From Blasia pusilla (taxonomy: Eukaryota): a stretch of DNA of 64,000 nucleotides. The stretch lies in contig CM114271.1 in assembly GCA_050084515.1 (NCBI GenBank), forward strand, positions 5,208,001 through 5,272,000. Reading direction: 5' to 3'. The notes beneath the pieces were generated by a model that was not told where the DNA came from, did no database searches, and worked only from the letters and a program-made list of their open reading frames with translations. Positions 5,790 through 62,073 of the stretch are shown one piece after another. How positions within the stretch are numbered: position 1 is the stretch's first letter; the number at the start of each line of letters is the position of its first letter. Both the position numbers and the translations under genes were made by a program.

Positions 5790-5960
5790 AGTAGGTAGTT
5801 CTACATTCCGACTTGTGTTTGTGACATGGATGCCAAGAAGGCGACTAACGATGGGGCCACATGAGCACCCGGCCTTCTTACTCTTAGCGTCTGAGAGATG
5901 TATGTCATGGTAGGTAGGAATATATGGCTATCTGGAGTTAGAGGGACCTAACCACTAGTT

Positions 5961-5970
5961 AGGGGGGCGA
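5961..5970 (+). promoter_or_regulatory. Polypurine tract (AGGGGGGCGA) of element B
   Basis: Directly precedes repeat B1. The identical 10-mer precedes B1 of element C on the minus strand (49465-49474). Confidence 0.8.
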
Positions 5971-15984: not shown

Positions 15985-18900
15985 ATGGCAGATGAGAGCA
16001 CCGTACGGCATGAAGTGGTGCAGTACGAGGGATTCGACAAGGTGTTTATTGTCACCCTGCGTGCGCATCACTTAGTGCTAAGGGTTACAGCCAAGTCGAT
16101 CATCATTGTAGATACCCTCGGCTGCCGTTTGGACCGGGAATGTAATAAGGCATAACAAATCTTCCTCGACTCAAAGAAAATTTCTTTGGTGGATAACACA
16201 TTCGACTATTCCATCAAAGGCTATGATCTCCAATGACCAGAGAAAGATTGCTTGTAGGTGACCATGCAAGAAGTTGCCCATTTTTACCTTCACGAGTATG
16301 ACCTACACTAATAGAATCAGCATTTATAGCGGATGGAATCGACTGATTATGATTGCTAAGTCTCTTATGATTACTAATTGCCTCTGAGGGATAGTGATCT
16401 GACTCAACACTCAAATGGCGTTTTAAATGATACTGACTGATGTAAGGACTATTTCAGAATGTTGGCCTCTAATTATCTGGATTATTCAAACTCTTGATAC
16501 TTATCTCAACAATTTTAGAAGTTGTTCCATATACTTCTTTGCCTATGTCTCATGATCTGAATCGGATGTCTGAGACTTTGAAATGCCACGGCTTTCAATA
16601 CATTCTTGCCATCCTGCGTAGGCCTCTTTGCAAACCACAGCTCTCATGATTTTGGGTTCCAGAGAAGCCATACAGCTGCCACATCTTGGAAGATTTTTGA
16701 ATTCTGATCTCTTTGTAATAAAATCATTTTAAAAAATGAAAAGTTTGTGATTTTTTGCTCTACTTTTTGTTCAATTTTGTAGTTCATTCATTCTATCTTG
16801 ACATTGTGAAGCAGTTTCAATGGTTGTATCTAAGCCATTGAGGTTGTGGTTTTGCAATACATGGAACATTTATCAATTATGCAGCACCTTTGCACTGGAC
16901 CCTATGAGAATGTCTCCAGTACACTGTCTCCATCAAAAAATTGTAGTTTTGATTTGAATCTGTGCTTCTCTAACTGTAGATAGTTAGAGTTGCTAGCTCT
17001 TTGAGTTTGTTTACTTTCCAAACATTTGGGTTGAGACCTGTTGCTACTTTGCAACTTTTTGAAATGATTCCATTCTCCGTGGGCAGATACCTGGGTAGTT
17101 TCCACAGCTAATGGAGGAACCTTAGGTTTCAGCTCCGATATTGTCTCCAAACATCTGACATCTGATAGCTTCTTGATGTCTCTCATGTGTTCTGGACATG
17201 TGAGTTTCGGGAATGAAATGTTTAGAATTCACCAAATGCTTTCATGATTATTCCAGCTTATTCCATGCATGACAGTTGGCATGTGCCCCTTTTGTGAGAC
17301 GTCCAACAATCTCAGGCATACATGGCCCTTAATATTTGCACGGAAGCTTGGGACTGTAGCTGGTTTGAGTTCAGTTACCTCATCAGAAAGGCAAAGGAGT
17401 GGGATTTGGATCTGCATAGTTTGGACGAGTAATATCATAAGTTAAATAATGCTAAGTTCCAAGAAATATATATGAGTTTAAAGGAAGATCTCCAATTGGA
17501 TTTCACGAGAGTTTTGGTGACTTTGAGAGACGGAACGTTTAGTTGGAGTGAGTAAGTTGATTCACTCTATAAGTAAGTCCGTCAAGAGAGGGGGAGGAGG
17601 TTACCAACATTGCCAAGGATGAGACCCTCTTACGATTGAGAAGGAAGAGAAGTCACAGATGTTAAGGATAAGCTGTAATGATAATGTACAATGATGCCAT
17701 TGGATAAATTTGTAAATAGAACGTGAAACGTAACATATTGAAGAGGATGAAAGCTTACAAGTGTGAATCATTTTTCTAGATGTGTATGTCGGGTACACTT
17801 GTTGATGGATATGTTCTCATACTCATTTGGAACTTGAGTTCCAAATGAAATATTTTGCGTTCTGTGATGAATATACGATGAACGTCAAAGATGACGGATG
17901 AATTTTCTCACAGGTTCTAGTACTTGACTCGTGAATGGTGCCACCTCTGTGCTATTAAGCTTGTCAGTTTCATTGGGGTAATGGAAGTAAACACTGATGA
18001 TTAGCGCTCACTAAAACCAAAGGTTTAGGTTTGAAGTTCATCTGACTTGGTAGTGGACATTTGTTCAAAAAAAATGGAAGAATCGGAAGCTAAGTTCAAG
18101 TTATGTGGTTGGAATATAACATCCATGCTATTGGAACTATAGTTGTGAATGCCCTTGAATTCGCTCTTGAAATCCCATTCCGACACTACGAGTACTTCCG
18201 CAGGTCGATCCACTCCTTCTGTGGGCAACTGTAAGGCTAGCGCCAAGAGGATGTTCCAAATACTTGGATGATAGGCAATGGTTTGGATTTCACTTAGAAC
18301 TAGAATTCCGAATGCCTCCCAAAACCAAATTCCATCGGTAGGAGTTATGCCATAGTTGAACCAATTACTTCTGTGGGAAAATGTTTGGGACTTGCCAAGA
18401 GGAACTTTCAAATACAAGGAGGAATCTGGATGATAGCCAGTGGATCTAAGTTTGTTTGGAACTACAGTCGCGAATGCCTCCCGAAACCCCATTCCACCGG
18501 TAGAAGGTGTGTTGTTTTCTAGAACAGCTCCTTCCGTTGGCTACTGTAAGGCTATCGCAAAGAGGAATTTCCAAAATCTTGGAGGATAGGCGGTGGGTGG
18601 GATCTCATTTGGAACTAGAGTTCCGAATGCCTCTTGAAACCCGATTCCATCAGTAGGAGCTGTATGTCATTGCCAAAATACGTCCTTCCGTAGGGAATAT
18701 TTCCAAGAGGACCTTTCAAATACAAAGAGGATAGCATGTGGTTCGGAGTTCATATGGAATTAGAGTTTCCAATCGTAGTTCAATTGTCTCTTCAGATCCC
18801 ATTCTGAGCCCTTTCTAGAAGAGCTCCTTCCGCAGGCTACTATAGGGATATCGCCAAAAGGAATTTCCGGAATCTTGGAGGATAGATGGTGGGTCGGATC

Positions 18901-19230
18901 TCATTTGGAACAAGGACTCCGAATGCCTCCCGAAATCGAATTCCATTGGTAGGAGTTGTATATCAGTGCCAAAACAGGTCCTTATGGCATAAAATATATG
19001 GCTATTGCCAAGAGGACCTTTCAAATACAAGGAGGATAGCCAATGGGTCAAAGTCCATTTGGAACTAGAGCTTTGAATGTTTGTTTAATTGTCTCTTCAC
19101 ATCCCATTCGGAGTCATTTCCGGAATAGCTCCTTCTGTGGGCTATTCTAGGGCTATCGCCACATTGGACTTTCCAAAATCTTGGAGGATAGGCGGTGGGT
19201 CGAAACTAATTTGGAACTAGAGTTATGAAT
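15985..19230 (+). pseudogene. Possible heavily decayed TIR-NB-ARC(-LRR) resistance-gene remnant
   Basis: Weak motif resemblance only: TIR-like start (FDKVFIV...QIFLDSKKISL), a GLPL-like ECWPLII segment at ~16455 and YSMHD at ~17259, followed by a repeat region. No continuous frame. Confidence 0.22.
18230..19230. repeat. Diverged tandem repeat, ~300-bp period (about 3.3 copies) with ~150-bp internal sub-repeat
   Basis: The motif ggctatcgcc...ttccaaaatcttggaggataggc...tttggaactagag recurs at ~18230, ~18545, ~18840 and ~19145. Confidence 0.8.
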
Positions 19231-22200
19231 GATGTTCAATTGGCTCTAAAGATCTGATTTTGTTGGATGGAGCTGATGCGATGCCGGAACAAGTCCTTTT
19301 GCGGACATGTTCCAGTTGTTGTTTGTTTTATCTTCTAGTTTTGGGAGAAGAGGAGGATTTGGGACTTGTTCTTGACTTCCTGCAACCTCATGGAAGACAA
19401 AGACTCACCAAACAAGTGGCCCCCCAACACACTGATTATACTTATTTCCATGCTATATTCATTCGGCCCAATGAATGAACCTTTGCAAAGTGTGTCCTTT
19501 CTCTAATCCATCCATGGTGGCGCGCCACATTCAAACTTTTTTCTCTTCCGTTGTATGTGGGCCGTGAATAATTTAGTTTCATAATTTGTAATGTTTGATT
19601 TCTTGCGGTCACGAGGACTTCAGCCACATCAACACTTCAATTGTGATAACTCACCATACAGTATTCCTCTTGAAGAAGATGAAGGATGGAGGCCTGACAC
19701 CACGAATGCTCGACAAAGACTTTAGACATAATTAGAACTTAAGTTCCATTTTGGAAAATTCTAAACCTAAAAGCATAACCTTCAGTCCATATTTAAATGT
19801 TGCTGAGGTGAAGGAAACCTCGTTTTTCACTTTCCCCAAACAAAGTTGACTAGGCATGGCATGTCACGGCGACCTAATTTAATTCCATGGAATGGCTATT
19901 ATACGTGCACATGTTCATTGCAGAATTGTTGATTAGTGACCCCCGTGCTTGCGAGGATTTTATCATGAATTTTTTTTCCCAAAGGACAGCTACTTGGCTC
20001 CCAATAACAACGTTTTTCCACAAATCAAGAATAAAACTTTTCTCGTGTCAGTTAACACAAGTACATCAGTGACAATATTTGAATGTCCGACCACAAGGAT
20101 GTCTCTGCAAGTTGAGTGTCAGTAAATCAATTGTAAGCCATAGCACGCCGGAGATGTCGAGCCTAATCATTCAATAAACATCAAGAACATTTTATCTCTC
20201 ATGCGTTGATCCTTGGTGGAATAAGAGAGCAAATGGAATGAGTGGAACTGTTGTTGTGAAGAGGATTGTGAATCAGATTAAACAGACTTAAATCCTCATT
20301 TTATTTGGAAGCAAAAATTTGAGGAAATTTGAAATAATGAAGGGTTTAGGAAACCCACAAATATTTTAATTTACCAAGAATGCCAAAATTGGTGTTTTAG
20401 GAGCAAACTTCTTACCACAAAGTATACAATGAACCTTTGGCACAAATGCAGAAGTAGAAGGGTTTCAATGAGAGGAGGTGGGAGGTGCATGAGGTGGTGA
20501 TGGACGACGATGAGGGGGTAAGTAGGTTGGGGAAGGAGGAGGAGGAAGAAGAGGGGAGAGAAGGGTAGAATAGATGGGAGTTGGAAGCAAGGACACAAAT
20601 AAGTATGTGAGGATGGCAAAGTAGTAGGATTCGGTAATAATGGATCAATATTAGGCTCAATAGACGAAAGGAAGAGGGGAGAAGAGGAGAATCTGGAAGA
20701 AATGTAGCGAGTGTAATGGATATATTAGTATGTAGAGAAAAATGGGGAGATCTACAATGATGAGGGGAAGCACGGGGAAAGGTTACAACATTAGGAGCGT
20801 GTGTAAAACCATATAAGCGAGTAGATGGAGTATCCAAATCCATCTCTCATGCCATAGAAGCAAAGGTGGGCAAGTCATCCAAGACAAGGGAACACATATG
20901 AAACGTGATTTTGAGAAAACATGAGGGTAACGACTTAAACAAAAGTAGTGGAATTCGTCCAAAAGACATTCAGATTAAAAGAATAAGATTAGGCAATGAT
21001 GAATTTATGATTGAAAGTTACTTTAATAAATATAAAAAGAAATTGGAAAGGAAGAATGACCTTTACGATATCAAAAGAAGTGGCTCAAGTGTCCTTAAGG
21101 AGATACCAAACGTATGTAGTGGCAAAATAGTTAGGTAAAGAGTTGAAAGAGCAAGGAAGACATTTGAGAGGACTGGACGTAAAACAAAACAGTACAAAAA
21201 AAGAAGACTACGGAGAAGAAAAAAACTAGAAAACCTACTTGGTATGAAAAGAACCAGCTAGTCAAGACGATTGAAACAAGACCAAACATGCCAAAAACCG
21301 ATATTTCAAGAGAAAATTATGAAAGAAATTGAAAACACCAAAAAAGAAGATGTGAGGAGAAAATGAACCACCCAATGATGACTATTGTGAGGGAATGAGA
21401 ATGTAATGTTGGACCCAACTCCTGTCAAAAGATCGAAAAAAAGCACGGAAAAATTTCTTAAACTGATGGCAACCCAGTATCACAATGTAAGAAGAGCATT
21501 ATGTTTCAAACTGCGTTTAAGAATCCATGAGGATATTAAGGAGAGAGTGAAGTCCAAAGAACTCTAGAAAATTCCATCTTAAATGAAAAAAAATTATCCC
21601 AAAATTCAAATTTGAGGAGATGAACAGGGGCAAATTTCTATACGCCATATCAAAACACGGAGCAAAGAGCATCCTAACCACTAATTTTGATGTTGACATA
21701 CTCTCCACACTAGACCTCGACCAGCCCTCCCGAAAGTGAATGCGTCCACTCCGCCCCCATCGCTAAACGACCATCCTTGCAGACGGTTTGGGTTCGGGTA
21801 CACACAGCGAGAGGGCGGGAGCGAGCGAGCGAAAAACCGAATGAATGTGATCCAGGGAGCGAGCGAGCGAGCGAATGAATGAACGACAGAGTGGGGTGGA
21901 TGCGGAAGGTTGTGGGTGCGATCCATTCTTGACCGTGGATGTCCTCCAAGAGGCAAATGGGAGCTCAGATCGCGTCAACAATCGATCGAGCCTTCCCCAC
22001 ACACGAAAAGCAGACACAGAGAGATTGGGGCGTGGCACGGGCATGTTCCTGTCGTTCGATCACGCGTAGAGCGATGTCCCATTTGGACGCCAGCGAAGGC
22101 GTGGACACTCGGCGGGGGCAGCTGGACGCGGCGGTCCCATCTCCAACCTCAAAATCCGAGGGGAGTAAAATCCCTCGCAGGATTTTGTGCTGCTCTGTCG

Positions 22201-35834: not shown

Positions 35835-43355
<7,521 letters not shown>

Positions 43356-44659: not shown

Positions 44660-45175
44660 TGTCACATTTTTTAGGATAGATCGGTGAGATCTAGTAGATC
44701 GCCTTTGTGAGTAGTGGAGGACACGCTCACAAGGTCGAGGATGACCTTCTGAGGCTCCGGGAAACTTGAGAGAGTAGATTTCCCCTTTGTTTCGGCTCAT
44801 TTGGAGCCATATTGAGGAACTTACTATTTTAAGCAAGTTCTAATTTGAATAGATGATCGACTTTCTATTTTTGGTAAATGGCCCTTGACCTCTTACATCA
44901 GGTCAAGAGCCAAGGAGGTGACTTGGTAGCATAGGTTACCATGGAGAGAGCTTGGGAGAGGGGAGGGGTATACCTCAAGGAGAGAGAGCTTAAGAGCTTA
45001 TTCTCCCTTTGTTGAACCTCTTCGCATAAGGCGGCGGAGCTATGGTCTTGCTTGCCTTGTGTGTATACCCAAGCCTCTTATTAGGAGAGTGAGTTTGGTT
45101 TGACATTGACAGAGACATGTGAGAGTGCACACATGTGAGAACTATGGTGTTGTGAGAGAGATTGCATGTATTTTA
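44660..45175 (+). repeat. Repeat A1 (5' terminal repeat) of element D
   Basis: Homologous over its length to 6100-6613. Not preceded by repeat B. Followed directly by the self-priming PBS (45175-45190). Confidence 0.88.
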
Positions 45176-48100
45176 CAAAGAGAGAATGAGTGAGTGAGAG
45201 AGCTTCATGGGTGAGCTCGCTGGTTGCTTGATGTTTCGTGCAGGTTGGGGGACCGTGCTCCCCGCTTCATGGCTTATGGGAGTGCTTACCGAAGCAAGAG
45301 CCCTGCGAGTTTGCTGTTTTGCTTTGCTGATTTTTTGTACGGGAGAGTGGCACACGGAAGTGCTGGCCAATTTTCAATAGGAATTGAGTATGGGGGCAGA
45401 TTGCTCCATGCTGGTGCTCTCGAAAGCACTATGTAGCTTGCTGATTTGTGTTCTTATAGATTTTATACTTTCGTAGGGAGAAATCAGCGCGGAAGCGCAA
45501 CCAAATTTTGTGTAGGAGAGAGAGACGTTGGGCTTTACGACAGTCCCCGTTGGTTTTTACTGGAATGTTTGATTCAAAATATTTTTTGACGCTATTGTAG
45601 ATCATGAAGCTCTGCACGTTGTGCAACAAACGGTGTGCAATTTGGAGTTGCGAATTAAAAGTTATGTTCCACCCGTTTAGAGCATGGAACGGTATATTAC
45701 AGCATTTAGAGGGGGCACCCATGGACAATTACCATGAGTTCTCCCATAGATATGCCTAGGAGATTGAGGCATGATGACTCTACTATGACCCACACTATGT
45801 GTCATGGATGGAGCGATTCCCAGATGAGGAGGAGGAGTCAGGAGAGGCTACTTCCTTTTCCACTAGTGATGTTTTAGGAGGGGTCACTCGCACTGGAGCA
45901 GTTGCACCATCTAGTCGCGTTCGTCCCATGCTCAACCCCATGGTTGAGTTCTTCGCTGAGTTGAGGACGAGGGGATACGAATGGAGAAGTTACGGAGCAT
46001 CCACGACTTCCAAAGGTGTCCGGGTGAGAGTTTGCGTGAGGCTTACACTCGCTTGCACCGATTGATCAACGTCACTCAAGGGGTGATAGAGGCTTTGGCT
46101 ATCTAGTCATGGTACGCGATGCTGGACTGGACCTTGCGGACACGGGTGCGAGAGGGGGTGCTTCTTATGAACACCTCCTCTACTTTGAGAGATGTTTTTA
46201 GGACCTCCAAGAACATTGAGCACAACATGGCGAAGGAGAGCGCAACCACCATGGGTTCTGGGCGAGAGCAGTCATGATTGCCTGCGCCACGAATGCAACA
46301 ACGTGGACTCCGAGATAGGTCAACTGTGGCACCACAAGCTCAAGGAGAATACTAGGAGGCCGTGCCACAAAGACTTGCACCTTCATATGCGGCTCAACAA
46401 TAGTTGCCTACGATTACTTGTTGGTCATATGGTGGAGCCCACCATCAGCATGATTGCACTCGTGAGGATCCAGGACGTGTGCCTCAGCATGGAGGAGGAG
46501 ATGGCGCTATTCCAAGAGGTTATCAATGTGACTATTGTGAGAGGTATGGTCACATAGGCGCCAAGTGTTTCAGTTTACACCTTGAGTTACCTCCATACCG
46601 AGGGCCAAAGAGGGCACCAGAGCGAGTAGCGGGTCCGGATGGGGCTAGAGATCGTGCACCTGGTGGTCGTGTGGGGGGACAAGGAGCTGGAGTTTCCCGA
46701 TAGGGTGGTGGAGGTGCCCGTGGATGAGGTGAGGTCCCACCACCTGGACGCATCAAGGGGAATGCTAGGCGCGAGGCTGGGATGGTTGCTCAGAAACATC
46801 AGCTACAGGAGCAGATTGCCGCTATGGCATTGAGGTTACCCGATGCTGGATCCATGGCATCGACATCATATGGAGCAGACAGAGATATGGAGGATCTTGG
46901 TGGGATGTGTGGGGTTGCCTAGATGGAGGCCGCCGCAATTGTGATGCATGGAGTAGCTGCAGAGTCGGATCCACAACGAGGGGAAGCCAGGAAATAGACT
47001 AGGCTTCCTCCGTCTTTCACGTTGTCGAAGGTGATGAGGATCCCATCGATGGGTCCTGATCAGAGTTCCCGGAGAGTTGGTAATGTTATTGCTGTGTAGG
47101 CACGGAGGGCAATGGGAGAAACAAGTGTGATGACTCCTATTGTTGATGCTCAAAAAGAGCACATGTCGAGTACGATGTTGGGGGCGGCCACGATGGTGTA
47201 CCGTGCTCCGCTATTTTTTGCTTCCGATTTTATGACATTGGGAGGTACACCTGCCGAGGTATTCCGGTTGGCCGCTATGCTATGTGAGTGTGGAGTTGGA
47301 GTTCTTGTATCACGTTTCGAGGTGATTGCAGAGGAGGTGATGGGCCTGCCCTTGGAGCTGATGCTAGGGCCATCCACGTCAGATTCATGGCAGGTTACAG
47401 CTGCTAGGATGGCAGAGATGCCTGCTAGACTCGCGGTAGAGCATGCCATGGCTTCTCTTGGTGTTGTGTTGATGGATAACCAGGGAGAGGTCTTCCAATT
47501 AGTGAGTCCCGTAGGTAGAGCTTTTAGTCCGCATCGCGTCTTGTTGGATTCAGGAGCGCAATCCCTAATGTTGGGGAAAGCATCATTCAGAGGATAGGGC
47601 TTGACGAGAGCCGATGTGGAGCGTTGTCCATTCCGGATACAGACATCCTTGGGTGGAGCGAGTACCACACAGTATATCACCCGACAGGAGGTTGTGGTGA
47701 GGATTCTTCGGGGACATCCTACAGATGAGTCCGTGGTGCGAGCCAAGGCGATAGTGACAGATGCAAAATCCTATGACGTCTTGGTTGGTGGAGTAGTGTT
47801 ATACCCGATGGGGTTTTCCTTGGATTATTGGGAGGAGTTAGCGTCCTACAGACCAGGATGGCAGTCAGGTGATGGGCGCCTTAGCTCATTACCCGTTCGA
47901 TTCACAAGTGTAGTGATCGAGCAACGGCCAGGAGAGATGGCGACCTTAGCAACATTTTTCCAATCAAATTGGACTCTTACCTCATGAGAACTTCTCGGGG
48001 AGGTTTGTTATTTGGAGCATTTAGCAGTGCCATCACTTGGCCTAGTGATTTGATTGAGGGACATGTCCATGAAGTGGATACTCCCCTTCCTGATATTTCT

Positions 48101-48325
48101 CTGCAGAGGAGTGTAATGGTAGCCACATCAATCTGTGGAGGAGAGGTGCCGCTTTGGGGCTCAACTAAAGAGCTTCCACCCTTAGCCACTGAGCATGTGC
48201 AGACCGCGTGGAGCGAGATGCTTGCACCAGAGTGTGACAAATCAGAGGAACCCCAAGTAGGCAAGAGTGCTGCTATGACCCCTTTGGACACCACCCCGAT
48301 TATGTGGTGCATCCTAGAGAAGGGT

Positions 48326-48897
48326 ATTCGCGTGTTGGATCTCTTTGGAGGGATCAACATTGGGTTAGCTGCTATTTTGCAGGCTAGAGTGCGCGTGCAA
48401 CAGTATCTATATGTGGAGATTGATGATGTTGCGAGGTGCCCTTCACTTCACCATGTGGCGCAGTTACATATCCATTTTTTTTTACTTGTTTTCTGCGTCC
48501 GCCATTCACGGTTACCAAAGTTCCCTACCGAGGGACATTTCATTGTCGGGGGCGCAGGACTTGGAGCGGAAAGGGACCATAGACTTGGTCATTTCTGGTT
48601 GGCCATGTCAGGGCCAATCGAGTGCTGGACGGGGTAGCGGATTAGCTGACTCTCGATCCAAGTTGTTCAAGGAGATGATGCGGATCTTGAACATTTGCTG
48701 GAGCATCAGTCTCATCTTCTAACATACATTCTATAGAGTATATACCAATTTTGGGCGATTTGAGGTCCCGTGTGGTGACAAGTGCACATCAAGTGCGCGC
48801 ATGGATTGGCTTGGCAATTTTGTTGGATGCGGCCATTGTGGGCTCACAAGCATATCGCCGACATCTTTGGTGGACCAACTTGGTACCACACAAGGTG
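48326..48897 (+). pseudogene. N-terminal half of the DNMT3-like C5 cytosine methyltransferase domain of element D
   Basis: IRVLDLFGGINIGL (motif I), YVEID (II), DLVISGWPCQG (IV, catalytic PC) and AYRRHLWWTNL (VIII); frameshifted. Confidence 0.88.
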
Positions 48898-49464
48898 TGT
48901 CGTGCGAATCCACATCGTCATACAACATACATTGCTGACATACCATACTCACATACATACATAACATAGACGAGAGCATCCACAAACACAAGTGTACCAC
49001 AACAGAAATCCGTGAAAGACCTACTGTCATAAAACACGTATACAATCACATACAATCGAGCCAAACCTACTCCACGATGGGAGAATCTAGGTCGAAGCTT
49101 GCGAGAAACACCATAGCCAAGAGCTCTACTCACTACCAAGGCTAACTCCCAACGCAACAGGCTCAACTCAAAGAACTGACTGTTCTTTGAGTGCACTCCA
49201 CCTTATATCCTCCAACCTAAGAGCGGTCCCTACTGGGAAAGTCAACCCCCAACCCTATGTATGAAACCGCATCTCTACCAAGCCACTACGATCCTACATA
49301 AGGAATGGCCTCTACTAGCACACTATACTCTACGACATAATCCGTATGGTCATGACGGTCGTATGCGAATCCACATCGTCATACAACATACATCGCTGAC
49401 ATACCATACTCACATACATACATAACATAGATGAGAGCATCCACAAACACAAGTGTACCACAAC
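48898..49464 (-). repeat. Split 3' terminal repeats of element C: B2 48898-49003, A2 ~49005-49357, B1 ~49358-49464
   Basis: B1 and B2 are ~106-bp direct repeats. A2 matches 58318-58684. PPT at 49465-49474. Confidence 0.92.
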
Positions 49465-49637
49465 TCGCCCCCCTAACTGGCGGTTAGGTCCCTCTAACTC
49501 CCAGGTAGCCCTATACATCTACTACATGCTATACACCTTCTTGGGTGCCCGAATCATAAGGCCGGGTGCTAGGTTGCCCCATCATTAGTCGCACATCTGT
49601 AATCCATATCATGCAAAGATCAAGTCATCTACCTCTC

Positions 49638-52600
49638 CTAAGTACATCGAGGACAAACCCACCTTCCAATAGGAACAACATCCATACGTGGAGTCAAACA
49701 CATCATGTGCCAACCCCTAGAACACCGATCACACACCAACATACGGGTTGCGTTACCAGCAGATCCACACAACATGCACCTCAAGCTAGCACGGATCATG
49801 GCTAAGCTTGGGTCAACAGTACCATCCACATTTGGAAGATGATATGGCGCACAATTACGCACATGGTCCTTCCAAACAACTCCATCACGACCCTCCAACA
49901 TGAGAACTCCGAAGCTAACACCTCGCGCTTTTCGTAAAATAGTGCGGCGTGCCGTCACATCCAACGTTGTCGGTGCAATCTGCTGCAAATAGACATAGTC
50001 CCCCACATGGAACCTACGAATCGATGGTCGATAACCTCCACCCCGAATGGTTGCATACCGCAACGTATCCCTGTGTTGAGCAATGGCAAGATTCTGAAAG
50101 GCTGTTGGCATAACTCTCCGAAAGAGCTCGCCGGCGAGAACACACTCTCATCCACATCTCTGGGTCATCAAGGTTCACCACCTCACTAGACTCCCGACGA
50201 ATTGCTACTGGCAAGTCTGGATCTCGACCGTATAATAGAAAATAAGGTGAGAAGGAAGCCAAGGATGCTTGGCGACTGAACCTATACCCCATGGCTAATC
50301 ATGGCAACTGAATATCCCAGTCTCTAAGATGCCCCTTCTGTAGGCCATACTTACGCAATGCCCTCTTCACTGTCTGAACCACACGCTCAGCCAAACCATC
50401 CGCCTCTGGATGCTCTTGAGACGTGGTCCGATGATCAATCAACGCCTTGTCACACAAGACCTGAAACTCACCCTGAAACTCTATACCCTGGTCGGTCAGC
50501 ACTTCAGCTGGTGCACCAAAATGACTAAGCACTCTATCAAGAAACGCATACGCCGTTCCCTCACTTGCCTTGTCCGGTAATGCCACCAACTCAATCCACT
50601 TGAGAAGTGCTCCACCATCACCAACACATATCGATGATGTAAATCGATACCAACGGTAACGGTCCCGCAAAGTCCACACTCCAACGGTAACCCAACCCCA
50701 TAATAGGCAAGGGGTGTAATTGTGGTGTACGGGCATTGAATGATGCCCTCACTCGGTCACAAACCATACAACGTGACACCAACTGCTGCACCTGAGTATG
50801 CATGCCACGCCACCAATACTGGCCAAGGAGTAAGCTATATGTACGCTTTACCCCAAAATGTCCCAACTCTTCATGGGCATGTCGCACAATGCGCTCTCTT
50901 TGAGCCAAATATGGCACTACTCGTACTCTACCATCCTCCCACACGCGGAGAATATGTGTTCCCTCCAATCGATACCTCTTAGCACGTTGAAGAACACGGT
51001 CTTGCTCCTTGGCACTCACTATGCCTGGCATCCTACTGGTCCGTAGGAACTCCAACACCAACGCATCATTATGAATATCACGCTGATCCGTACCACCATC
51101 TCCAACCTTAGGATCTGAAGGCTGGCCATCTACCCTCTCACTAGAGTAAGATATCATGTGATCCTCCATACTAGAGTCCACCCCAAACCAACATAAAAAG
51201 GCGGATGCATGCCAACCTGGCACCATCTCCTCATCAACCTCGCCATGCCATCTAGCCCCAGTTGTATCCTCTTGGCTAGTACATGGGTTCCTACTCAACC
51301 CATCGGCATCAAAGTTGGCAACTCCAGGTCTATGTACCACCTAGAAGTCATACTCCTGTAAGATAAGAGCCCACCGTGCGAGCTTCCCTGTAAGCTTGTA
51401 AGACTCCATCAACCATTTGAGCGGCTGGTGATCAGTAACAAGGGTAAACTGTGTGCCAAACAAGTAACACCTAAAGTGTGCCACAACCCACACTACTACC
51501 AAGCACTCTCCCTCATATGAACTATAGCGCGACTCCGCTACATTATTCGAACGACTTGCATAGGCCACCACAAACTCCATGTGCTCATCATCATGTTGTG
51601 TCAACACCGCTCCAAGTCCTAACCTACTCCAATCAGTGTGTAACTGAAATGGGCGTCCTCTGATAGGTCTCCTCAAGATAGGCGTCGCCACCAACTGGGC
51701 CTTAAGCTCCACAAAAGGTCTCTCCTTATCATCTCCCCAATGCCACTCTTGATCTGATTTCAGCAATTGGTTCAAAGGCTTTGCCATAGCACTAAATCCC
51801 TTCACATACCTCCGATAGTAGTTCGCCAATCCCATGAATGCTCAAACTCTACTCACATCTACCGGACGCGGAATAAGTACAATAGCCTCCACCTTTGCTT
51901 CCTAAACTCCCAAACCACCTGGATAGATCACATGACCGAAGTACTCAACATCCTCATGGAAGAACTTACACTTTCTTGGATGCAAACGTAGACCATGAGC
52001 TTTCAACCGCTCAAACACCATCTGCAAATGTATCTGATGCTCCTCCACCGTATTACTGAACACCAAGATATCATCAATGTAACACCGAACAAAATCCAAC
52101 CCTGCTAGGATCCTGTCCATCACTCTCTGAAACTGGGCAAGTGCATTCTTCAACCCAAAGGGTAAGAATTTCCACTGGTACAAACAATCCTTGCCATGAG
52201 AGTTGACACCCCAAACTGCTGTCTTGGCCTTGTCACTCTCCCGAATCGGCAATTGATGGTATCCTGCCCGAAGATCCAAAGTACTGAAAATCTTTGCCTG
52301 TCCCACCACATCAAAGATCTCCTCAGGTGTAGGCATGGCATACCTATCGGCCTTGGTTTGCCGATTGATAGGACGGTAATCTCCACACATCCGCCTATCC
52401 GTGTAGTTGCCATGCATATCCTTTTTAGCAGGCATGACAATGGCTAATGCATACTCTCCATGCGACAACTCCACTAATCCAGCCTCCAAAAGGTCCAACG
52501 TCCTACTCTGAATCAGGTCCCTCTCCATATCACTATATTGGTAGGGACGACGGAAGATTGGCGTATCACTAGCCAAATCAATCCGTATACCGGGTCCAAC

Positions 52601-55600
52601 CAGAGAACCCAACTCCTTCATGCTAAAGGCAAAACAACTCCTATAAGCACGTAGGAACTCTGTAAAGCGTCGTTTCTCACCTCCCGTAAGCTTGGGCCCA
52701 AGTAATGGCTCCCAGGTCTCCTCCACTGGCACACTAGAGGGAGAGGACGATGCCATTGGCTGCTACGAAACCCCCTCACAAGATGGTACACCCTTAGCTA
52801 CACCATCATCTGAGCAAATAACTCCTCCACCAGCATGAGCAACCAACTCCACATGCCCAGCCATAACATCCCATTTACTCCAAGGATGCAAAATACTACT
52901 CTCCTCGCCCCCAGCCGATGCCTCTACCGTCCCGGTAGCCATCGAGCTCATTACAAGGGGTGGAAGACCCACAGACATAGTCCGAAGTTGACGGTGCTCG
53001 GCCATACCAAGACTCAAAATCCAAGTCAAACAATTCAGGTCCATGGCTTGACCCAACACATGACGTCGTGAAGCCTCAGAAATAGAAGCAACCGCTGTCA
53101 CACCAGTAGCAAATCCCATCGCACGCTCTCTTTCATCACCGTTAGGCTCCACCAACGGTCGCACATGAGAATCCCATACAAGCCCCGGACCACCTTCTCT
53201 GTAGGCATGTGACGAGGGAAAACTCACAAATGTGGGTAGTGCCATCCTAGGCTGGCCCACACGGTTCACCACTGCCATGGGTGACCGATCAATAACCCTC
53301 ACCACTTGAGAAAGTCGCCCAGTATCCAAGATACTATCCACGGTAAGGCAAGGATCCCGCTGCACTGCATCATATGCTTGACGTAGACCCTCCCTAGGCA
53401 ACAAGTTTGTCCACCACAAGCGTGGACGATGTGCACGCGAGCCAACTCGCGCTGCATCCAACAATACCGCTGGTCCAATCCAAGACCGCACCTCATGAAC
53501 ACTCGCCATCATCCGGGTCCGAGTGTCACCCAACAATGGAACATTCTCCAGAATGTAAGCTGGAGCACGTGCCAGATAAACCTGAAGATGTCGTAACACC
53601 CGTAACATCTCCCAAAACAATCGAGACCTAGGGTCATGTAATCCCTCACCACGACCTGCACGTGTATGACCCTAACATGGCCATCCAACAATCACCAAAT
53701 CCTTAGGACCAACCCTCTCAAGGTCCTACGCCCCCAACAATGCAATGTGTGATGGCAAAGCACGTTGGTACCCACGAATAGTTGATGGCGGCAACAACTC
53801 AGGATATCTCCGCATCAACTGACCAATATGTCGGGATGAGACTCTATGGGCCGTCTCATCTCGCTCCACATACACGTATCTCCACACAGGAATACCGGCC
53901 TCCAACACTGCAGCCAAACCAGTGCTAATCCCACCAAAGAGATCTAACACACAAATGCCCTCCGGCGGATACTGCCATACAATGGGTGTAGTATCCAAAG
54001 CGGATAACCCAACTGGACCAGAAGTAGGAGTCCGCCGTGGGGCCTCCTCTTCCTTGTGAGGTATAACAGCCTCACACCAAGCCTCCTGCACTAGGCGATC
54101 AGCCTCTTGCCGTAGTGCACCGCCTGAACTCCAAAGTGGCACATCCAACGATGAGGATGCCACTGCTGCAAGAATAGGGACCTTCTCTACCTCCTCATGC
54201 GTAGGAGAATCCATAGCAGAAACATTACCCTCCAAAAAGTCTCGTGGCCAAGTGACTACTCCACTAAAACCAGCCACAGATGCTAACACTGTTGGGGAAG
54301 ACCCTCCTGGTCGAGCCCCAGAAATAAATCTCACAAGAACTTGGCTCATACATCCATCCCCGGACTGCCAACTAGGTCTATAAGACGATGTCTTAGTCCA
54401 GTAATCCATCTGAAAACCCATCGGGTACAATACTGCTCCTCCAACTAGTACATCATACGACTCGGCTGATGTGACTACCGCAGATACTCCCGACCGGGAG
54501 CTATCAGTCGCATGATCTGGTCTCAACTGTACAGAAAACTTCTCCCGTGTCATGAATTGAGACCTATCATTGGCTCCTCCAAGTGATGTTTGAATGTGGA
54601 ATGGGCAAGGCTCAAGCTCTGACCTCCGAATACCTAAACCAATACATGCCGCCTTTCCCAACATCAAAGGTTGGGCACCGCAGTCTAACAAGACTCTATC
54701 TGGTCTATACACTTGTCCTGTAGGACTCACCAATCGGAAGATCCCACTCCGGTTGTCCAACATACATACACCAGGTGTAAGCCTCTCACGATCAATGGCT
54801 GGCCGGGCTGGTAATGCATCCATCTTCGCCGCCGCCGCCGCTAAGTAGCACGGGTACTCAATGCTACACCTGACATAGAGGGTCGCTCCACCACAACACC
54901 CTCATTCACCTCAACACGTATAGCAGTAATACCCCCACGTTCACACAACGTGGCTGCTAGCTGAAATACAGGAGCTAAGTCAACTCCTAAAGCCATCGGC
55001 TCCGTGGCGAAAATAATGGGGATCCTAACACCGAAGTTGCCATCCGCAATCTTGCCGATCGATGTCGCATCCGTGTCTACTACACGCGATGTAGATGCCG
55101 AGTCCCCACTGTCGGCTCAATAGGGCGTGAGGAACCATGGATGGAGTCCTAAGCACCTCAAACAACAAGAATGATGGGAAGCCTAGCCGCCTCCCGGCCT
55201 CACCCCTCTGTGGGTCCAACTCACAAGAGCACCACGTGGCTCGACGCTCGAGTGGCTCCTCTCAACCGCATTGATGCCTCAACTTGTCTTTGCACTCGCC
55301 ATATAAGAGAGATCATCCCCTCCATAAGAGGTGGAAGCCCTCGCTCCCGAACCTGATCTATCCGGATACCAACCATAGTAGCCAACTTATGCTCCAATCT
55401 GCTCAATCCTGGCACCATAGTTGACTTTGTCGTAGTGGTAGGGGTAGCCACCGAGGCTCTCCAACCACTAGTCCACCTCTACCACCCCTACCACCTCTAC
55501 CACCTCGGCCTCTCGGAGCTACTCCACCACGGCCGCGGCCTGATCTCAACTCTGGATGAAGATCAAAGCAACGCTCTCGAGGATGACCTGGTCTCCCGCA

Positions 55601-56805
55601 ATGATCACACTGAGTTGGGGCCGACTGAGGCCCATCCTCCAAAGTCCGTCTCCCATCCTCTTGGGGACAAACCTTCCTAACAGGATCACCTCCACATGTC
55701 CAACATGACTGTCCTTGCTGCCAAGTAGCAAATGAAGGCAATGGTCTCTGCGCAAGTGTCCCTCTAGGACCTGACTGAGGTTGTGTATACCCCCCACGAC
55801 TCCCACTACTACTACCACCACCACTACTACGAGACTGTGAGGTGGGCTACTGAACATGAGAAGTAGTAGTTGTATCCCTACTGAATGCGGATATCACCAC
55901 TCTCTCCTTCACCATGTTAAGCTCAATCTTCTCAGATAGAGCAAACACATGGGTCAATGTGGGTGAATCATCACTCATAAGAGAATCATCACGTACCCTA
56001 CGGCGCAAATCTCTGTCCAAGATCCCATACCAAAATCGGATCGCCTGATCCTCGCCACACCCTCGGTAATCGAAATCAAGCGTCGCATACGAGTGTATGC
56101 CTCACGAAGACTCTCACCAGTCTTTCGCTCAAATTCCTGAAGACTCCTCAACTTCTCCGTCTTCACTCCATGATAGTTCTTCTTCAACCTCTTGAAGAAC
56201 TCTGCAACCGGGCTGAACGATGGTGGGGCACTAGTACCTCCACTAGTACCCCCACTAATACCTCCACTGGTACCCCCACTCTGGCTCGTACTCGTACCAC
56301 TCAACGTTGGGCTGGATGGCATAGTAGGAGCACTACTACCAATACCACCATGGGTGATAGACACATAGCTTGGAGACCAATATTGTCTCCATGCCTCAAT
56401 CTCAGCAACATGGTCCTTCCTAAGCTCATGGTAATCATCCATGGGTGGTCCTTCCAAGTGCTAAAACAACCCCTTCCAAGCCAAGAAGGGTGTAAACAAC
56501 ATCTGCATATCACACCACGTATCAAACTCCTACATGAAGTCCTCCAACTCAATGGTGCCCACTACACCCGAATATCGTCGTGGGACCTTCATGGCCCCAT
56601 ATCCACCGTCCATGTCCCAAATCAATGGAGCTGCAACACTCGATAACAACATAGAAGACTCGGTGTTTGGAACACCCTCGTCCTCCTCTTCATCAACCGT
56701 CGGAAGTGGAAAAGGTAGCCGATACCTAAATCCACTCCGTGTGAAACCACCACTGTCCGCACCACGGTCCCCAACCAGACCACCCGACAGCTCCGTGATG
56801 ACCAA
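49638..56805 (-). pseudogene. gag-pol of element C: Gag (~56805-55450), protease (~54685), DNMT (~53960-53010), RT (~52600-51900), RNase H (~51700-51340), integrase (~50900-49800), PHD (~49780-49640)
   Basis: CDHCGRPGH...C; VLLDCGAQ; VLDLFGG; YILENVP; RRMCGDYRPIN; YIDDILVFS; LHTDWS; HEELGHFG...CMVC; WSVDFAGP; VLTDQGIEF; DGLAER; CMLC...CDRC...WHMMCLTP...WVCPRC. Broken by stops and frameshifts. Confidence 0.93.
53010..53960 (-). pseudogene. DNMT3-like C5 cytosine methyltransferase domain within the polyprotein of element C
   Basis: Motifs in canonical, non-permuted order: ICVLDLFGGISTGL (I), YVERD (II), VIVGWPC*G (IV), YILENV (VI), RAHRPRLWWTNL (VIII), ERERAMGFATGVT (IX), RRHVLGQAM (X). Confidence 0.92.
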
Positions 56806-58304
56806 CGCCGATGCCGCACCACCACCAAATTACCACCACCAAATAACCAAGTGACGTCGATGTCGCTATACTATTCTAGCTCTACTAGCTATGGGTGTAG
56901 GCAACCTAACTTGTCATTACCACAAGAAGCCTCCCACGGTCTACTCGTCATCCCTCTAGCCTCACTACCGGTAGCACACAGGAGTAACACTACTCTGGAA
57001 ATCAGCGTCAACCCTAACAATGGGCGCGCAAGCAAGAAGCACCGATGGAGGGGATCCAAACACAGGAAGTCCAACGACAACCCTCCAATCGCAAATGGAA
57101 ATCAAGGTAACATAATCCACCAAACGTGGTGCCCCCTGAATCCACAAAACCCACCACACAATTTTAACGCAATAGCTACTCCGCCGCGGGTCGATGACAT
57201 GCTAGTCGAACTCGCAGCACCTGAAAATATCACCTGCATGGAGAGGCTACACCGTACTATGCGCTAGAGGAACATCAACCAAAAACCTGAGATGCATAAA
57301 GCGCCTAACACATCTCAAAACAGTACCAAATAAGCTACAACAGTGTGTACACTGGCATAGTTAAGAACTCAGCAGTTAAGCGTCCTCCAGGCAGAATAGC
57401 CCAAACATGGATGACCAGTTATGCAACACTCAAATCCCAAATCCTGCAAAAATTCCCTCACGCCCAAGCAAGCAAGCTTGCTTGCTTGCTCCTTGCTCCT
57501 TACTCCGCCTCTCACGCCCGCTCGCCCCGAGCTACCACGAGTTGCCTCGAAGCCTCAAAACGCCGAGACATGCCCCGTTCGCCACGCTTCGCCATGCTTC
57601 GCTATGGAGAGAGGCCCAACCAGGGCGCCCCCAATGGGATAGGCGTCTCCAACAATGAACGAGTCACCAACCAACGAGCCCCTCCAATCCGCTGTCCACC
57701 ATAGCCAGACCTTGAGCTAGTCCGCAAAATTTCGATCAACAATTACTTCACAAATCCGTGACCAAAATCGAATCTGTTTCAACCAGAATTCAATTGACCA
57801 CCATAGCTATCTCTCCACAAAAAATCAGCTACAACCAAGCTCTGTACTCCGAGCTAAAAATCAGACAAACTTGCTGTCCAGAATCGCAAAAATCGCAAAT
57901 CCGACAGCGCTTCCGCCGAGTTTCATGCACGCAGAAATCCGCACCGCTCCACGCACTCAAGCAGATAGCTTCACATCAGATCACAATACAAGTAGCAACA
58001 GGAATCTCTCACCCGATCTGGATGAACTTCAACAGAGCTTCCGCACTCCAAGCTCTCCACATCAGAAAACCGTCGAACACGAACCAGAATCTTCAATCCT
58101 TGATAACTTCCAACTCCCTTGACAAAATCCAACGATCTAAAGCGCGTTGGAAAGCTCTCAGCAAGGCGCTTCTTTCCTAACCAACCACGCATCAGATTCA
58201 TACCTCCAACATAGGCCACAAGCCACAAACATCCACGGCTGAGTACACAATCAGCCCTAACCAGATCCTACTGATCTACAATCGAAGCTACCATCGATCT
58301 ACTC

Positions 58305-58317
58305 CAGTTCTTTGAGT
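58305..58317 (-). promoter_or_regulatory. Putative self-priming primer-binding site (ACTCAAAGAACTG)
   Basis: Lies immediately 3' of A1 and is the exact reverse complement of CAGTTCTTTGAGT at the predicted TSS (58491-58479). Confidence 0.72.
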
Positions 58318-58684
58318 GAAATCCGTGAAAGACCTACTGTCATAAAACACGTATACAATCACATAAAATCGAGCCAAACCCACTCCAGGATGGGAGAATC
58401 TAGGTCGAAGCTTGCGGGAAACACCATAGCCAAGAGCTCTACTCACTACCAAGGCTAACTCCCAACGCAACTGGCTCAACTCAAAGAACTGAAATTTCTT
58501 TGAGTGCACTCCACCTTATATCCTCCAACCTAAGAGCGGGCCCTACTGGGAAAGTTACCCCCAACTGAGTAACCCCCAACCCTATGTATGAAACCGCATC
58601 TCTACCAAGCCACTACGGTCCTACATAAGGAATGGCCTCTACTAGCACACTATACTCTACGACATAATCCGTATGGTCATGACA
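58318..58684 (-). repeat. Repeat A1 (5' terminal repeat) of element C, with TATA box and predicted TSS
   Basis: Matches A2 (49005-49357) apart from a short indel and substitutions. TATAA at 58520-58516, with a TCAGT initiator-like site ~29 nt downstream (58491). Confidence 0.88.
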
Positions 58685-58688
58685 GGTG

Positions 58689-61600
58689 TTGCGGAGGGCA
58701 TATGCAAGAGTGGAGCGCCCCTATGATTTGTTGGTGGATTCTATATTGGATTCGGGCCGTCGATCAGAGGCAATGAGGCTAGATGATCGACCGCCATTGA
58801 CTGTGGTCAAGAGGATTGGTAGGCCACGGGCAGCCTTTCCCACATTGATGAGTTTTCCCGCTTCCTATGCATTCAAGGAGGCCGGACGTGGCTTGGTTTG
58901 GGATGACCAAGTACATAGGTTTGTGGAGCCCAACACTGATGAGCAAGAGTGAGCGATGGGATTCCCCACAGGAGTGATGGCAGTACCGTCACTATCAAAG
59001 GTATCACGAAGTCATGTCTTGGGTTAGGCGATGGACCTGAACTGCTTGACATAGATTTTGAGCTTAGTAGTAGTTGAGCAACATCGTTTGAGGATGCGAC
59101 AGATCACAGCTATTGCGTTGGTGAGCCCCATGCCTACCGAGATGGTTGAGGCAATGGCTGGGGGCGAGACCCGAGGAGATCGACACACCAAGGATGATCG
59201 AGAGAGACACCCTTAGACTTCTTGGGATGTTTTGCAGGTACGCCAGGAGAAGATAGCCACAAGATTGAGCGTGGTTCCGGGTACCGCATATGGATATGAG
59301 AGTTCTATTGTCCGAGACGGGGTTGCACCATAGCAACCACCGACATCCGCGCCGGAGAGCCCTACTGTAGTCACGATGGAGACTTGGGAGTCAGATATGG
59401 GCCCTAAGTTGACAAGAGGAGAGCGGCGTCGGATATACTGGTTCCTTAGGAGTTATAGGAGTTGTTTTGCATTTAGTATCCATGATTTGGACATGCTGAA
59501 GGATCCAAGGATCCGCATTGAGTTTTCGAGTGACACGTCGATCTTTCGACAACCCTATAGGTACAGTGACATGGAGAGGGCTCTGATTCAAAGTAGGAGC
59601 CATGACTTGGTTGGAGCAAGACTAGTGGAGATGTTGCAAGGAGAGTATGCATCTGCCACTGTCATGCCCGCGAAGAAGGATGTGCATGGCAACTAGACGG
59701 ATAGGCGGATGTGTGGAGATTACTGACCTTTCAATCGGCAGATGAAGTCCGATAGGTATGCCATGCCCACCCTTGAGGAGATCTTTGATGCGATTGGGCA
59801 TGCAAAGATCTTCGGTTCATTGGATTTGCGAGCCGGATACCATCAGCTGCCTATCAGATTGGAGGACAAGCAAAAGACGGCATTTTGGGGCATCGATCCT
59901 CACGGAAAGGATTGTTTGTACCAGTGACGGTTCTTACCATTTGGGTTAAAGAACGCCCCGGCTGAGTTTCAGAGGATCATGGATACAATCTTGGCACGTC
60001 TAGATTTTTCTAGGTGTTAAATTGATGACATCGTAGTCCTTAGAACCACGATTGAGGAGCATGAGCGACATCTAGAGGTGGTGTTTTGACGATTGCAGTT
60101 ACATGGGTTGAAGCTACATTCAGGCAAGTGCAAGTTCTTCTACGACCAGATTGAGTATCTGGGTCATATGAAATACCCAGGGGGCCTTGGTGTGCAGAAA
60201 ATGAAGGTAGAGGCTATTTCACGCATTCCACGCCCTATAGATGTGAGTCGAGTTAGTGCATTCATGGGATTGGCGAACTTCTATCAACGATACGTCAAGG
60301 GTTTTAGCTCGATTGCAAAGCTGTTGACCTTGTTGATCAAGGTGGATCAGGACTGCCACAGGGGGAATGAGCAAGAGAGAGCATTTCAGATGCTCAAGGA
60401 CACATTGATGTCCGCGCCCATATTGAGGAGACCGATCAGGGTGCGTCCTTTCCAATTGCATATCGATTGGAGCATATTAGGGCTTGGAGGCGTGCTCACC
60501 CAGCATGACGAAGATGATAGAGACAGATTGATGTCCGCGCCTATATTGAGGAGACCGATCAGGGGACGTCCTTTCTCATTGCATACATATTGGGGCTTGG
60601 AGCCGTGCTCACCCAGCATGACGATGATGGTAGAGAGTTCGTGGTGGCTTACGCTAGTCGCTCGAACAACGCTGTAGAGGCAAAGTATAGCTCGTATGAG
60701 GATGGGTGCTTGGTTTCGGTGTGGGTTGTCACACATTTCAATTGTTATCTATTCAGCAATCCCTTTACCATCATTGCTGATCATCAACCACTTAAGTGGT
60801 TGATGGAGTCCGACAAGCTTACAGAGAAGCTTGCGAGGTGGGCTCTTTTGTTGTAGGAGTATGAGTTCCAAGTGGTGCATAGACCTGGGACGCTCAACCA
60901 GGATGCAGATGGTTTGAGCCATAACCCATGCTCGAATCAGCGAGATGCGAGTGGAGCTCGTTGGCATGGTGAGAGTGATGAGAAGTTGGTGTCAGGATGG
61001 CATGCGTCAGCCTATTTGGGCTTGTTGGCTATGGAGAGCCAGATTGCTGAGACTTCTATGGCGAGGTCTGATGGAGAGTCCTTAGATCTAGAGGTCGGTG
61101 AGGAGACGACATGTGGCCGAGATATTCACGACGATGGAGTGGTCTTGGAGTACCTACGTACTGGTAGCGACGTGAGAACAGTGGATGCTAGAGAGCATGA
61201 TCGGATCCTACAACAAGCCAGACAGTTTCGATGGGAGGGGACACATGTGTTGCGAGTGTGGGAGGATGGTAGAGTGCATGTAGTGCCTCATCCTTCGCAG
61301 AGAGCACGTTTGGTGTGTCATGCCTATGAGGAGTTGGGTCATTTTGGAGTGAAGCGTACGTACAACTTGCTCCAGATTCAATATTGGTGGTGAGGCATGC
61401 AGAGTGACGTTCAGCAGTTTGTTGCCAGATGCATGGTATGTGATCGAGTCCGAGCATCGTTCAATGCTCCGACTCCACAGTTGCATCCAATTTTGATCAT
61501 GGATTTAGGTTATAGATGGAGTTTGGATTTTGCAAGACCTTTGCCTTTGACAGAGCGCCATAGTCATTATGTGTTGGTGCTGGTCGAGCACTTCTCAAAG

Positions 61601-62073
61601 TGGATAGAGTTGGTTGCATTGCCTGACAAAGCAAGTGAGGGAGTAGTGTATGCCTTCCTAGATCGAGTGCTGAGTCATTACGGCGCACCAACTGAGGTGT
61701 TGATAGACCAGGGTAGAGAGTTCCGCGGGGAGTTTCAAGCCTTGTGTGATCAGGCACTGATCAACCACCGCACTACTTCGCAAGATCATCCTGAGGCGGA
61801 TGGACTAGCGGAGCGGTTTGTGCAGACGTTGAAGAGAGGATTACGCAAGTGTGGATTGCAGAGAGGTCACCTAGGAGATTGGGACCTCCTGTTTGCGTGG
61901 TTGGCGATGGGATGCAGATTCAACAAGCAAGCATCCTTAGCGTCTTTCTCACCGTACTTGCTATTGTATGGCCGAGAGCCAAATTTACTTGCGGACATTC
62001 GTCGAGATGTTGGTGAGGTGTTGAACCTTGATGATCCTGACGTATAGATGCGACCATGTGTTCAGAGGGATGA
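58689..62073 (+). pseudogene. Second half of the element D pol: DNMT C-terminus, RT, RNase H, truncated integrase
   Basis: EPNTDEQE*AMGFPTG...HVLG*AMDLNCL; KSDRYAMPT; SLDLRAGYHQL; HAYEELGHFG; WSLDFARP; DGLAERFVQTLK. Contains a ~120-bp tandem duplication at 60404-60636. Confidence 0.9.

Follow-up and report, generated by a model that had tools for sequence, protein, structure and literature searches.

A 64,000-nucleotide stretch of the Blasia pusilla genome (GenBank assembly GCA_050084515.1, contig CM114271.1, forward-strand positions 5,208,001 to 5,272,000; hereafter the window) contains a retroelement, designated element C, whose ends pose the question of how it was inserted. Element C lies on the minus strand at 48898-58684 and carries two kinds of direct repeat, A and B, in the order A1–coding region–polypurine tract (PPT)–B1–A2–B2. 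Split direct repeats have been regarded as diagnostic of a tyrosine recombinase, and pairs of whole long terminal repeats (LTRs) as diagnostic of an integrase; the family of C, which encodes an integrase, breaks both rules. The explanation favoured here, to which we assign a probability of about 0.55, is that C and its relatives are Ty3/Gypsy-type elements of a methylase-carrying lineage that insert in circularly permuted form, with an LTR made up of B followed by A and an attachment site inside that LTR.

The repeats were delimited by a direct-repeat scan of 48000-59500, which placed A at 58318-58684 and 49005-49356 and B at 49364-49464 and 48903-49003. Read along the minus strand, as are all features of C given below, the element starts with A1 (58684-58318), which begins TGTCATG and has no B upstream of it, and finishes with B1 (49465-49364), A2 (49356-49005) and B2 (49004-48898; 3' terminus CGACA), so that its termini are TG…CA. 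A 4-bp target-site duplication (TSD), CACC (GGTG on the plus strand), occupies 58688-58685 on the 5' side and 48897-48894 on the 3' side. A1 and A2 were 92.9% identical over 368 columns, and B1 and B2 were 98% identical over 101 nt.

The insertion site provided independent evidence for these boundaries. The flanking segments, D and E, derive from a single plus-strand element; it belongs to a related subfamily (subfamily 1), and its pol region is approximately 74% identical to that of C in the window self-comparison. By tblastx, D 48733-48894 paired with C 53551-53390 and E 58689-59123 paired with C 53386-52952. When 48898-58684 and one copy of GGTG were removed, the host D/E was colinear to the base, which settles both the boundaries of C and the 4-bp duplication. 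Joints that skip C (from 48889, 48890 or 48892 to 58684 or 58685) were present in nine DNA contigs from run X1 and five from run X4, two DNA runs from different studies, and two further X1 contigs joined 48890 to 58694. Because these contigs skip C, copies of the D type that lack the insert must exist. Other X1 joints (49087 or 49088 to 58404 or 58407) were considered as solo copies and rejected, since they reflect ambiguous placement between A1 and A2. The initial annotation, made from the window alone, had proposed that the integrated unit was A–coding–B–A–B with the TSD around A1 and B2; that layout was confirmed. It had not reported the methylase described below, the nesting of C in D/E, or B plus A as the LTR. 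The insertion of C falls in the methylase-coding region of D/E, so that one methylase-carrying element has disrupted the methylase of another.

The coding region of C begins with a decayed gag-like region (55403-56460), in which CCHC zinc knuckles were recognised by eye in the open reading frame (ORF) translations and for which there was no Pfam match. It is followed by a protease-like motif together with the N-terminal part of a C5-DNA methylase (53726-54901), also read by eye, with a motif I-like DLFGGIS and no Pfam match, and by the C-terminal part of the methylase (52763-53671), which has an ENV motif and a weak Pfam DNA_methylase match. Next come reverse transcriptase (51902-52762; RVT_1, E 3.9e-31), RNase H (51341-51841; RT_RNaseH, E 2.5e-35) and a frameshift-split integrase with an HHCC zinc domain and a DDE core (50299-51340; Integrase_H2C2, E 1.3e-16; rve, E 3.1e-7, a match that scores 31 bits in this decayed copy, slightly less than the cut-off of 32.6). 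A C-terminal PHD finger (49638-50147; PHD, E 1.1e-10) completes the series; it follows the integrase at the place where chromoviruses have a chromodomain, and it is possibly a chromatin-targeting module. The Pol order of C, protease–reverse transcriptase–RNase H–integrase, is that of Ty3/Gypsy elements (Metaviridae), the protease being assigned from its motif by eye, and the C5 methylase sits inside Pol between the protease region and the reverse transcriptase. No tyrosine recombinase was matched by Pfam in the 19 scanned ORFs of C on both strands, in agreement with the initial annotation, which had described an HHCC/DDE integrase without such a recombinase. The domain was also absent from the precomputed Pfam lists of the 171 listed homologs of the methylase ORF.

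The methylase ORF had 241 relatives of similar length, many of them with PF00145, and 51 longer relatives, among which P0152 unites rve, RVT_1, RNase H, DNA_methylase, H2C2 and PHD according to its precomputed domains. The nearest named relatives were from bryophytes, with identities of 66-79% to Marchantia polymorpha (and 82% in one match that spanned a quarter of the query). Further named relatives came from Calypogeia, Sphagnum and Riccia, and Closterium was more distant at 38%. The Klebsormidium nitens protein KFL_000540020 matched the methylase ORF of C, and the methylase ORF only, at 38% identity (E 7e-29).

On account of its C5 methylase, C is grouped with the methylase-carrying Gypsy elements first named KnitGypsy-Dnmt3, with which it may share descent. 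As described in excerpts of de Mendoza et al. 2018 (PMC5890265), KnitGypsy-Dnmt3 of Klebsormidium nitens has a Gypsy-type Pol enclosing a Dnmt3-type C5 methylase, and the legend to Fig. 4c of that paper gives its repeat structure as that of a DIRS element. The combination of split repeats with a Gypsy integrase is therefore already on record, and the suggestion in the initial annotation that it was undescribed does not hold. Beyond that legend, a search confined to literature outside subscription journals turned up no description of split repeats combined with a DDE integrase, and no mechanism for the permuted layout was found in print among the excerpts available; the name KnitGypsy-Dnmt3 occurred in no further paper searched. 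The account of the element in the excerpted parts of PMC5890265 contains no TSD, terminus, primer-binding site (PBS) or PPT analysis and no mechanism. What C shares with KnitGypsy-Dnmt3, as portrayed there, is the Pol-internal C5 methylase and a DIRS-like repeat order with Gypsy domains; the two are nevertheless distant, with 38% identity to one K. nitens protein and with bryophytes as the nearest named relatives of C.

Independent copies were sought in metagenome contigs with a profile of the methylase region. Patterns were matched in 428 stretches, of which 296 passed confirmation; the 80 best were retained as loci, which were then scanned with the A and B repeats of one of them, L061; A or B was present in 35 loci. 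A complete 5' A was found in 17 loci (15 distinct flanks), all of which start T(G/A)TCATGACC. The initial annotation had proposed a check of related copies for conventional LTRs: neither an upstream B (a B-A start) nor an A-B-A start was present at any of the 17 complete 5' ends. At the 3' side, B-A-B was found in seven loci, six of them distinct (L012, L021, L026, L057, which is the locus of L061, L063 and L076). In L002 the B-A portion reaches the end of the contig, and L013 stops at the end of B. Twelve loci (ten distinct flanks) have 3' ends with B only, followed by unrelated sequence. Six loci were excluded from the counts of ends, four because A was cut or incomplete (L008, L015, L016, L032) and two because they have a lone B on the other strand (L022, L040). 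All 19 of the 3' ends listed finish in ACA or ATA. In a lineage with only 44% identity, represented by L079, the order PPT–B1–AC–A2–B2 was found too. The more distant L067, L077, L047 and L070 had no terminal repeats in the available sequence, and their ends may lie beyond the contigs. Every copy is decayed. The permuted layout appears to be conserved across streptophytes.

Target-site duplications around A1 and B2, the consistency of which the initial annotation had proposed to test, were perfect and 4 bp long in four of the five distinct full A…BAB copies: CACC/CACC in window C, CATA/CATA in L057 and L061, TCTC/TCTC in L063 and AAGG/AAGG in L076. In L026 (AACA/AATA) three of the four positions match. 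Three A…B copies also had both ends; L006 has a perfect TACA/TACA duplication, and L054 and L035 match at three of four positions. In all five loci compared, the B pair was no more diverged than the A pair, and therefore both pairs were renewed in one and the same cycle. These copies bear on the simplest alternative, that a conventional LTR element was rearranged or misassembled at the locus of C. Nothing beyond the odd layout speaks for it. The same layout occurs in two subfamilies in the window, in six distinct metagenome loci and in the lineage with 44% identity, it has been published for Klebsormidium, and the TSD was verified against D/E and by contigs of X1 and X4, which come from different studies. 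Host colinearity, the C-skipping contigs and the independent copies rule this alternative out, and we accord it practically no weight.

The PPT of C, AGGGGGGCG (49474-49466), adjoins B1, and across the window elements and 15 loci of the same family a PPT of the form TAGGGGGG(C/T)G lies directly against B1; a PPT-like G-run precedes the repeat region in the more distant L067 and L079. The B1-A2 junction of C (49357-49363) is mutated; in relatives it reads CGACA-NN-TGTCATG. Six of the seven B1-A2 junctions read have CA-NN-T(G/A), the full form being CGACA-NN-T(G/A)TCATGACC, where NN is GC in L026, L061, L076 and element B (a subfamily-1 copy elsewhere in the window), TC in L057 and AT in L063. 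The junction of L079 reads CA-AC-TA. At the B1-A2 junction the two termini of the element, 3' then 5', stand head to head across a 2-nt spacer and form a near-palindrome.

The A2-B2 junction obeys a different rule. In L026, L057, L061, L076 and element B it corresponds exactly to a fusion of the base that precedes the proposed PBS with the base that follows the PPT. It reads ATTTTC / AGTTGTGG in L026, L057, L061 and L076 (with one mismatch in L076), C shows the same identity with one mismatch, and element B follows the same rule with sequences of its own. In L063 the junction (10837-10857) has a 17-nt insert that resembles a nearby stretch of A plus two PPT bases. Aberrant joints of this type occur at retroviral circle junctions.

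Directly 3' of A1 in C is a proposed self-priming PBS, ACTCAAAGAACTG (58305-58317). Its complement inside A, CAGTTCTTTGAGT, is a 13-nt segment (58479-58491) that is proposed to form the first bases of the transcript and to act as self-primer, and a TATA-like box, TATAAGG (58514-58520), of presumed promoter function lies approximately 29 nt upstream of this segment. Across lineages the partner of the post-A1 sequence starts 27-30 nt downstream of the TATA-like box, and the pairing covaries: L074 and L076 have a 17-nt pairing between ACTCAAAGAACTATGTT after A1 and AACATAGTTCTTTGAGT inside A, and subfamily 1 pairs CAAAGAGAGAATGAG after A1 with CTCATTCTCTCTTTG inside A. The subfamily-1 PBS of D was read directly from the sequence, apart from the complementarity scan of 5' ends. 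Minimum-energy folds kept the PBS pairing (z -3.0 and -2.4) when begun at the presumed first base, a start chosen by the analyst. Inspection by eye showed no tRNA-type PBS after A1 in C or D. A second stretch complementary to the PBS, TTCTTTGAGTG, is present in A of the metagenome family at around position 255 of A (L076 approximately 1931-1945) and is not conserved in window C.

Since the PPT adjoins B and the primer site adjoins A, the LTR produced by reverse transcription is B then A. From this arrangement we infer the following cycle. Transcription would start approximately 30 nt after the TATA box in A, the 5' bases of the RNA would prime at the PBS as in Tf1, and the full-length cDNA would be B-A–coding–B-A. 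The integrase would then join host DNA at the internal B/A boundary of the LTR (CA-NN-TG), not at the cDNA ends; TG…CA termini with a 4-bp duplication are the kind of product that a DDE integrase makes, and such an enzyme, if it cut after each CA of CA-NN-TG, would produce 2-nt overhangs like those of ordinary retroviral ends. Joining of the cDNA termini would create A2-B2, and opening at the B/A site of the 5' LTR would yield an A…B-A-B insert. The termini may be joined through a circle of the 2-LTR type or by the plus strand jumping from the end of A to the start of B. In a conjectural version of the latter, the plus strand would run from the end of A onto the start of B, and both 3' ends would then be processed at the nearby site.

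The same junctions were weighed against DIRS-like templated replication in which an integrase has replaced the recombinase. The RNA would extend from inside A1 to inside B2, the B1-A2 template would restore the ends, and a linear A…BAB cDNA would be integrated directly. The repeat topology is of the PAT/Ngaro type, as set out in excerpts of PMC8969392, and such a cycle accounts at once for the occurrence of A…BAB only and never A-B-A…B; UG-rich B could, moreover, direct polyadenylation after B2. However, the PPT at B1 and the covarying self-primer site at A1 put the cDNA ends at the start of B and the end of A, and a primer site after B2 is absent, host DNA being what follows B2. Templated replication does not require A2-B2 to be the predicted termini joined, as was seen, and the L063 junction contains two PPT bases, as would result from aberrant end-joining. 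This cycle is therefore judged to be quite improbable.

The B repeat is strikingly UG-rich, with TGTATG and TTGTG runs, at 48898-49004 and 49364-49465 in C and at 14211-14325 in L061. Plant far-upstream polyadenylation elements resemble it. In the permuted layout only the 3' copy of A has a B after it, and one may speculate that this could place a termination signal behind A2 and not behind A1.

The copies that end in a single B allow another alternative, in which most primary products would be A…B and a minority A…BAB. Here the integrase would cut a linear B-A…B-A cDNA at its two internal sites or open a 1-LTR circle, and the 2-LTR form would give A…BAB. The metagenome loci include ten distinct A…B 3' ends compared to six distinct B-A-B ends, and L006 is an A…B copy with a perfect TACA duplication. 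Nevertheless, a deletion between B1 and B2 yields an identical structure and TSD, an A…B copy, lacking R on its 3' side, cannot go through a further round of copying, and the window contains no A…B copy. In a tree of 17 copies, in which L002 (the contig ends in A2) was scored as B-A-B, A…B was found in five of six old copies (path length at least 0.087) compared to three of nine in the young clade (one-sided p = 0.084). Since A…B is commoner in the old lineages, the plain A…B copies are probably later B1 x B2 deletions, and their being primary products is regarded as unlikely.

Transcription was assessed with stranded RNA runs that carry the same species label as the window (X22 and X23). RNA covered C at a depth of 10-166 per bin, on the strand that in most stranded libraries denotes sense transcription, and the depth in neighbouring D/E bins was below 1 on that strand. 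Reads crossed a joint from the end of B to the start of A (14 in X22 and 11 in X23, with 9 and 4 for a second variant). This joint is taken to be the B1-A2 junction of expressed copies and is consistent with B and the 5' part of A acting as U3. Two other joints have ends that are not intron-like and probably mark expressed deletion derivatives: one within 50110-51118 omits 1007 nt and contains a 9-nt filler (16 and 31 reads), and the other within 50028-56527 omits 6498 nt (6 and 6 reads). Loose ends of RNA at 49465-49501, the conserved PPT region of C, run on into subfamily-1 B sequence (42 and 105 reads), and therefore copies of the subfamily-1 type are transcribed too.

Several observations weigh against circularly permuted insertion through an internal attachment site. 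A symmetric 2-LTR circle predicts that A-B-A…B should be as common as A…B-A-B, yet none of the 17 complete 5' ends was A-B-A, compared to seven or eight B-A-B ends (p about 0.004-0.008); a directional step is needed to explain the missing form, and that step is conjectural. Exact complementarity of at least 10 nt at the expected site was found at only six of the 17 5' ends checked, being kept in L002, L046, L054, L074, L076 and window C. The B1-A2 junction of C itself carries mutations, and the B/A joint that was seen among the RNA joints was in none of the X1 or X4 DNA contig joints listed. RNA pile-ups of ambiguous polarity (5' or 3' ends) at 58523 (X22, 26 molecules) and 58458 (X23, 10 molecules) miss the predicted start at approximately 58491 and were not used as evidence. 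These data showed neither a circle nor a linear cDNA nor a transcript end. Finally, ten distinct copies are A…B and not A…BAB, and the picture would change if these were primary products.

C shares features with several known systems. The DIRS order is marked by split direct repeats or by ITR plus ICR. Its elements, as described for PAT-like and Ngaro elements in excerpts of PMC8969392, are arranged A1–internal–B1–A2–B2, have a tyrosine recombinase and lack a TSD, and SymbioDIRS-Dnmt3 unites the split-repeat order with Dnmt3 (PMC5890265, in the parts available). C has the same A1…B1-A2-B2 order and differs in its HHCC/DDE integrase, TG…CA termini, 4-bp TSDs and lack of a recombinase domain. 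TOC1 is also counted among the elements with DIRS-order split direct repeats. With Ty3/Gypsy elements C shares the Pol order, DDE integrase, TG…CA termini and a short TSD, but it does not have two whole terminal LTRs.

Precedents exist for the two unusual steps proposed. The Ty3/Gypsy elements Tf1/Sushi and Tcn1 are predicted to self-prime from their own RNA 5' end, and the Tcn1 clade occurs in mosses, according to excerpts of PMC6317226. The self-priming arrangement predicted for C is similar, whereas its LTRs are permuted and its C terminus has a PHD finger. Tf1/Sushi and Tcn1 elements have two ordinary LTRs and a chromodomain. Retroviral integrases (foamy virus, and HIV-1 in vitro) can cut palindromes at internal LTR-LTR junctions, as reported in the available parts of PMC1180852 and PMC1905944. 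C and retroviral 2-LTR circles both contain abutted ends that form a CA…TG palindrome; in the circles this junction arises by the joining of cDNA ends, whereas in C the abutted ends are permanent within the LTR and the joined ends correspond to A2-B2.

A broader proposal is put forward tentatively, at odds somewhat short of even: that an old streptophyte Gypsy lineage, from Klebsormidium to liverworts and mosses, never integrates linear cDNA ends, its DDE integrase using the permanently abutted ends that lie within the LTR, once the cDNA termini are linked. Split repeats would then follow from the position of the attachment site and would not be a tyrosine-recombinase signature, and the layout would be independent of, or exchanged with, that of DIRS-type elements. 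If this is true, split direct repeats reflect where the attachment site lies and not the type of recombinase. The family of C is relevant to the reason for the repeat order in DIRS-type elements, and it is a natural test of whether an integrase requires DNA termini or can use internal abutted ends. LTR finders that seek pairs of terminal repeats are expected to call A1 and A2 as the LTRs, and classifiers may mislabel such elements. New here are the verified TSDs and termini, the site of abutted ends inside the LTR, the identity of A2-B2 with joined cDNA ends, the predicted self-priming signals, the A…B derivatives and the occurrence of the family in bryophyte-like genomes. These elements, which encode a de novo-type methylase as well as a PHD finger, undergo transcription in the organism sampled, and the presence of relatives in model bryophytes makes tests possible.

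The other elements in the window belong mainly to subfamily 1. D, the 5' part of the host (44660-48897, plus strand), has an A-only start (TGTCAC) with no upstream B and is broken by C in the methylase region; E (58689-62073, plus strand) continues D beyond C and is truncated near 62073. Element B (2346-6740, plus strand) is truncated at its 5' end and has a PPT at 5960-5969, B1 at 5970-6097, a GC spacer at 6098-6099, A2 at 6100-6612 and B2 at 6613-6740. The A-only start of D and the PPT-B1-A2-B2 end of element B agree with the initial annotation, which had assigned subfamily 1 the same layout with other repeat sequences; no subfamily-1 copy in the window has both ends, element B being without its 5' end and D/E being truncated at about 62073.

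A C-like 5' part (1-2344, minus strand) adjoins element B in the way that C lies against E, except that approximately 535 bp, equivalent to 58491-59025, are missing across the junction. Minus-strand C-type sequence is therefore paired with plus-strand subfamily-1 sequence twice in the window (1-6740 and 54861-62073). In these composites the C parts were 90-95.5% identical and the host parts only 84-87%, and the pairing may have come about through duplication of a composite that then diverged unevenly, or through insertion at one site more than once. No further copies of either family were found between 6.8 and 44.6 kb of the window. Two features unrelated to C were also noted, a tandem array of approximately 150/300-nt units at 18201-19231 and a perfect 6-nt microsatellite at 38593-38755.

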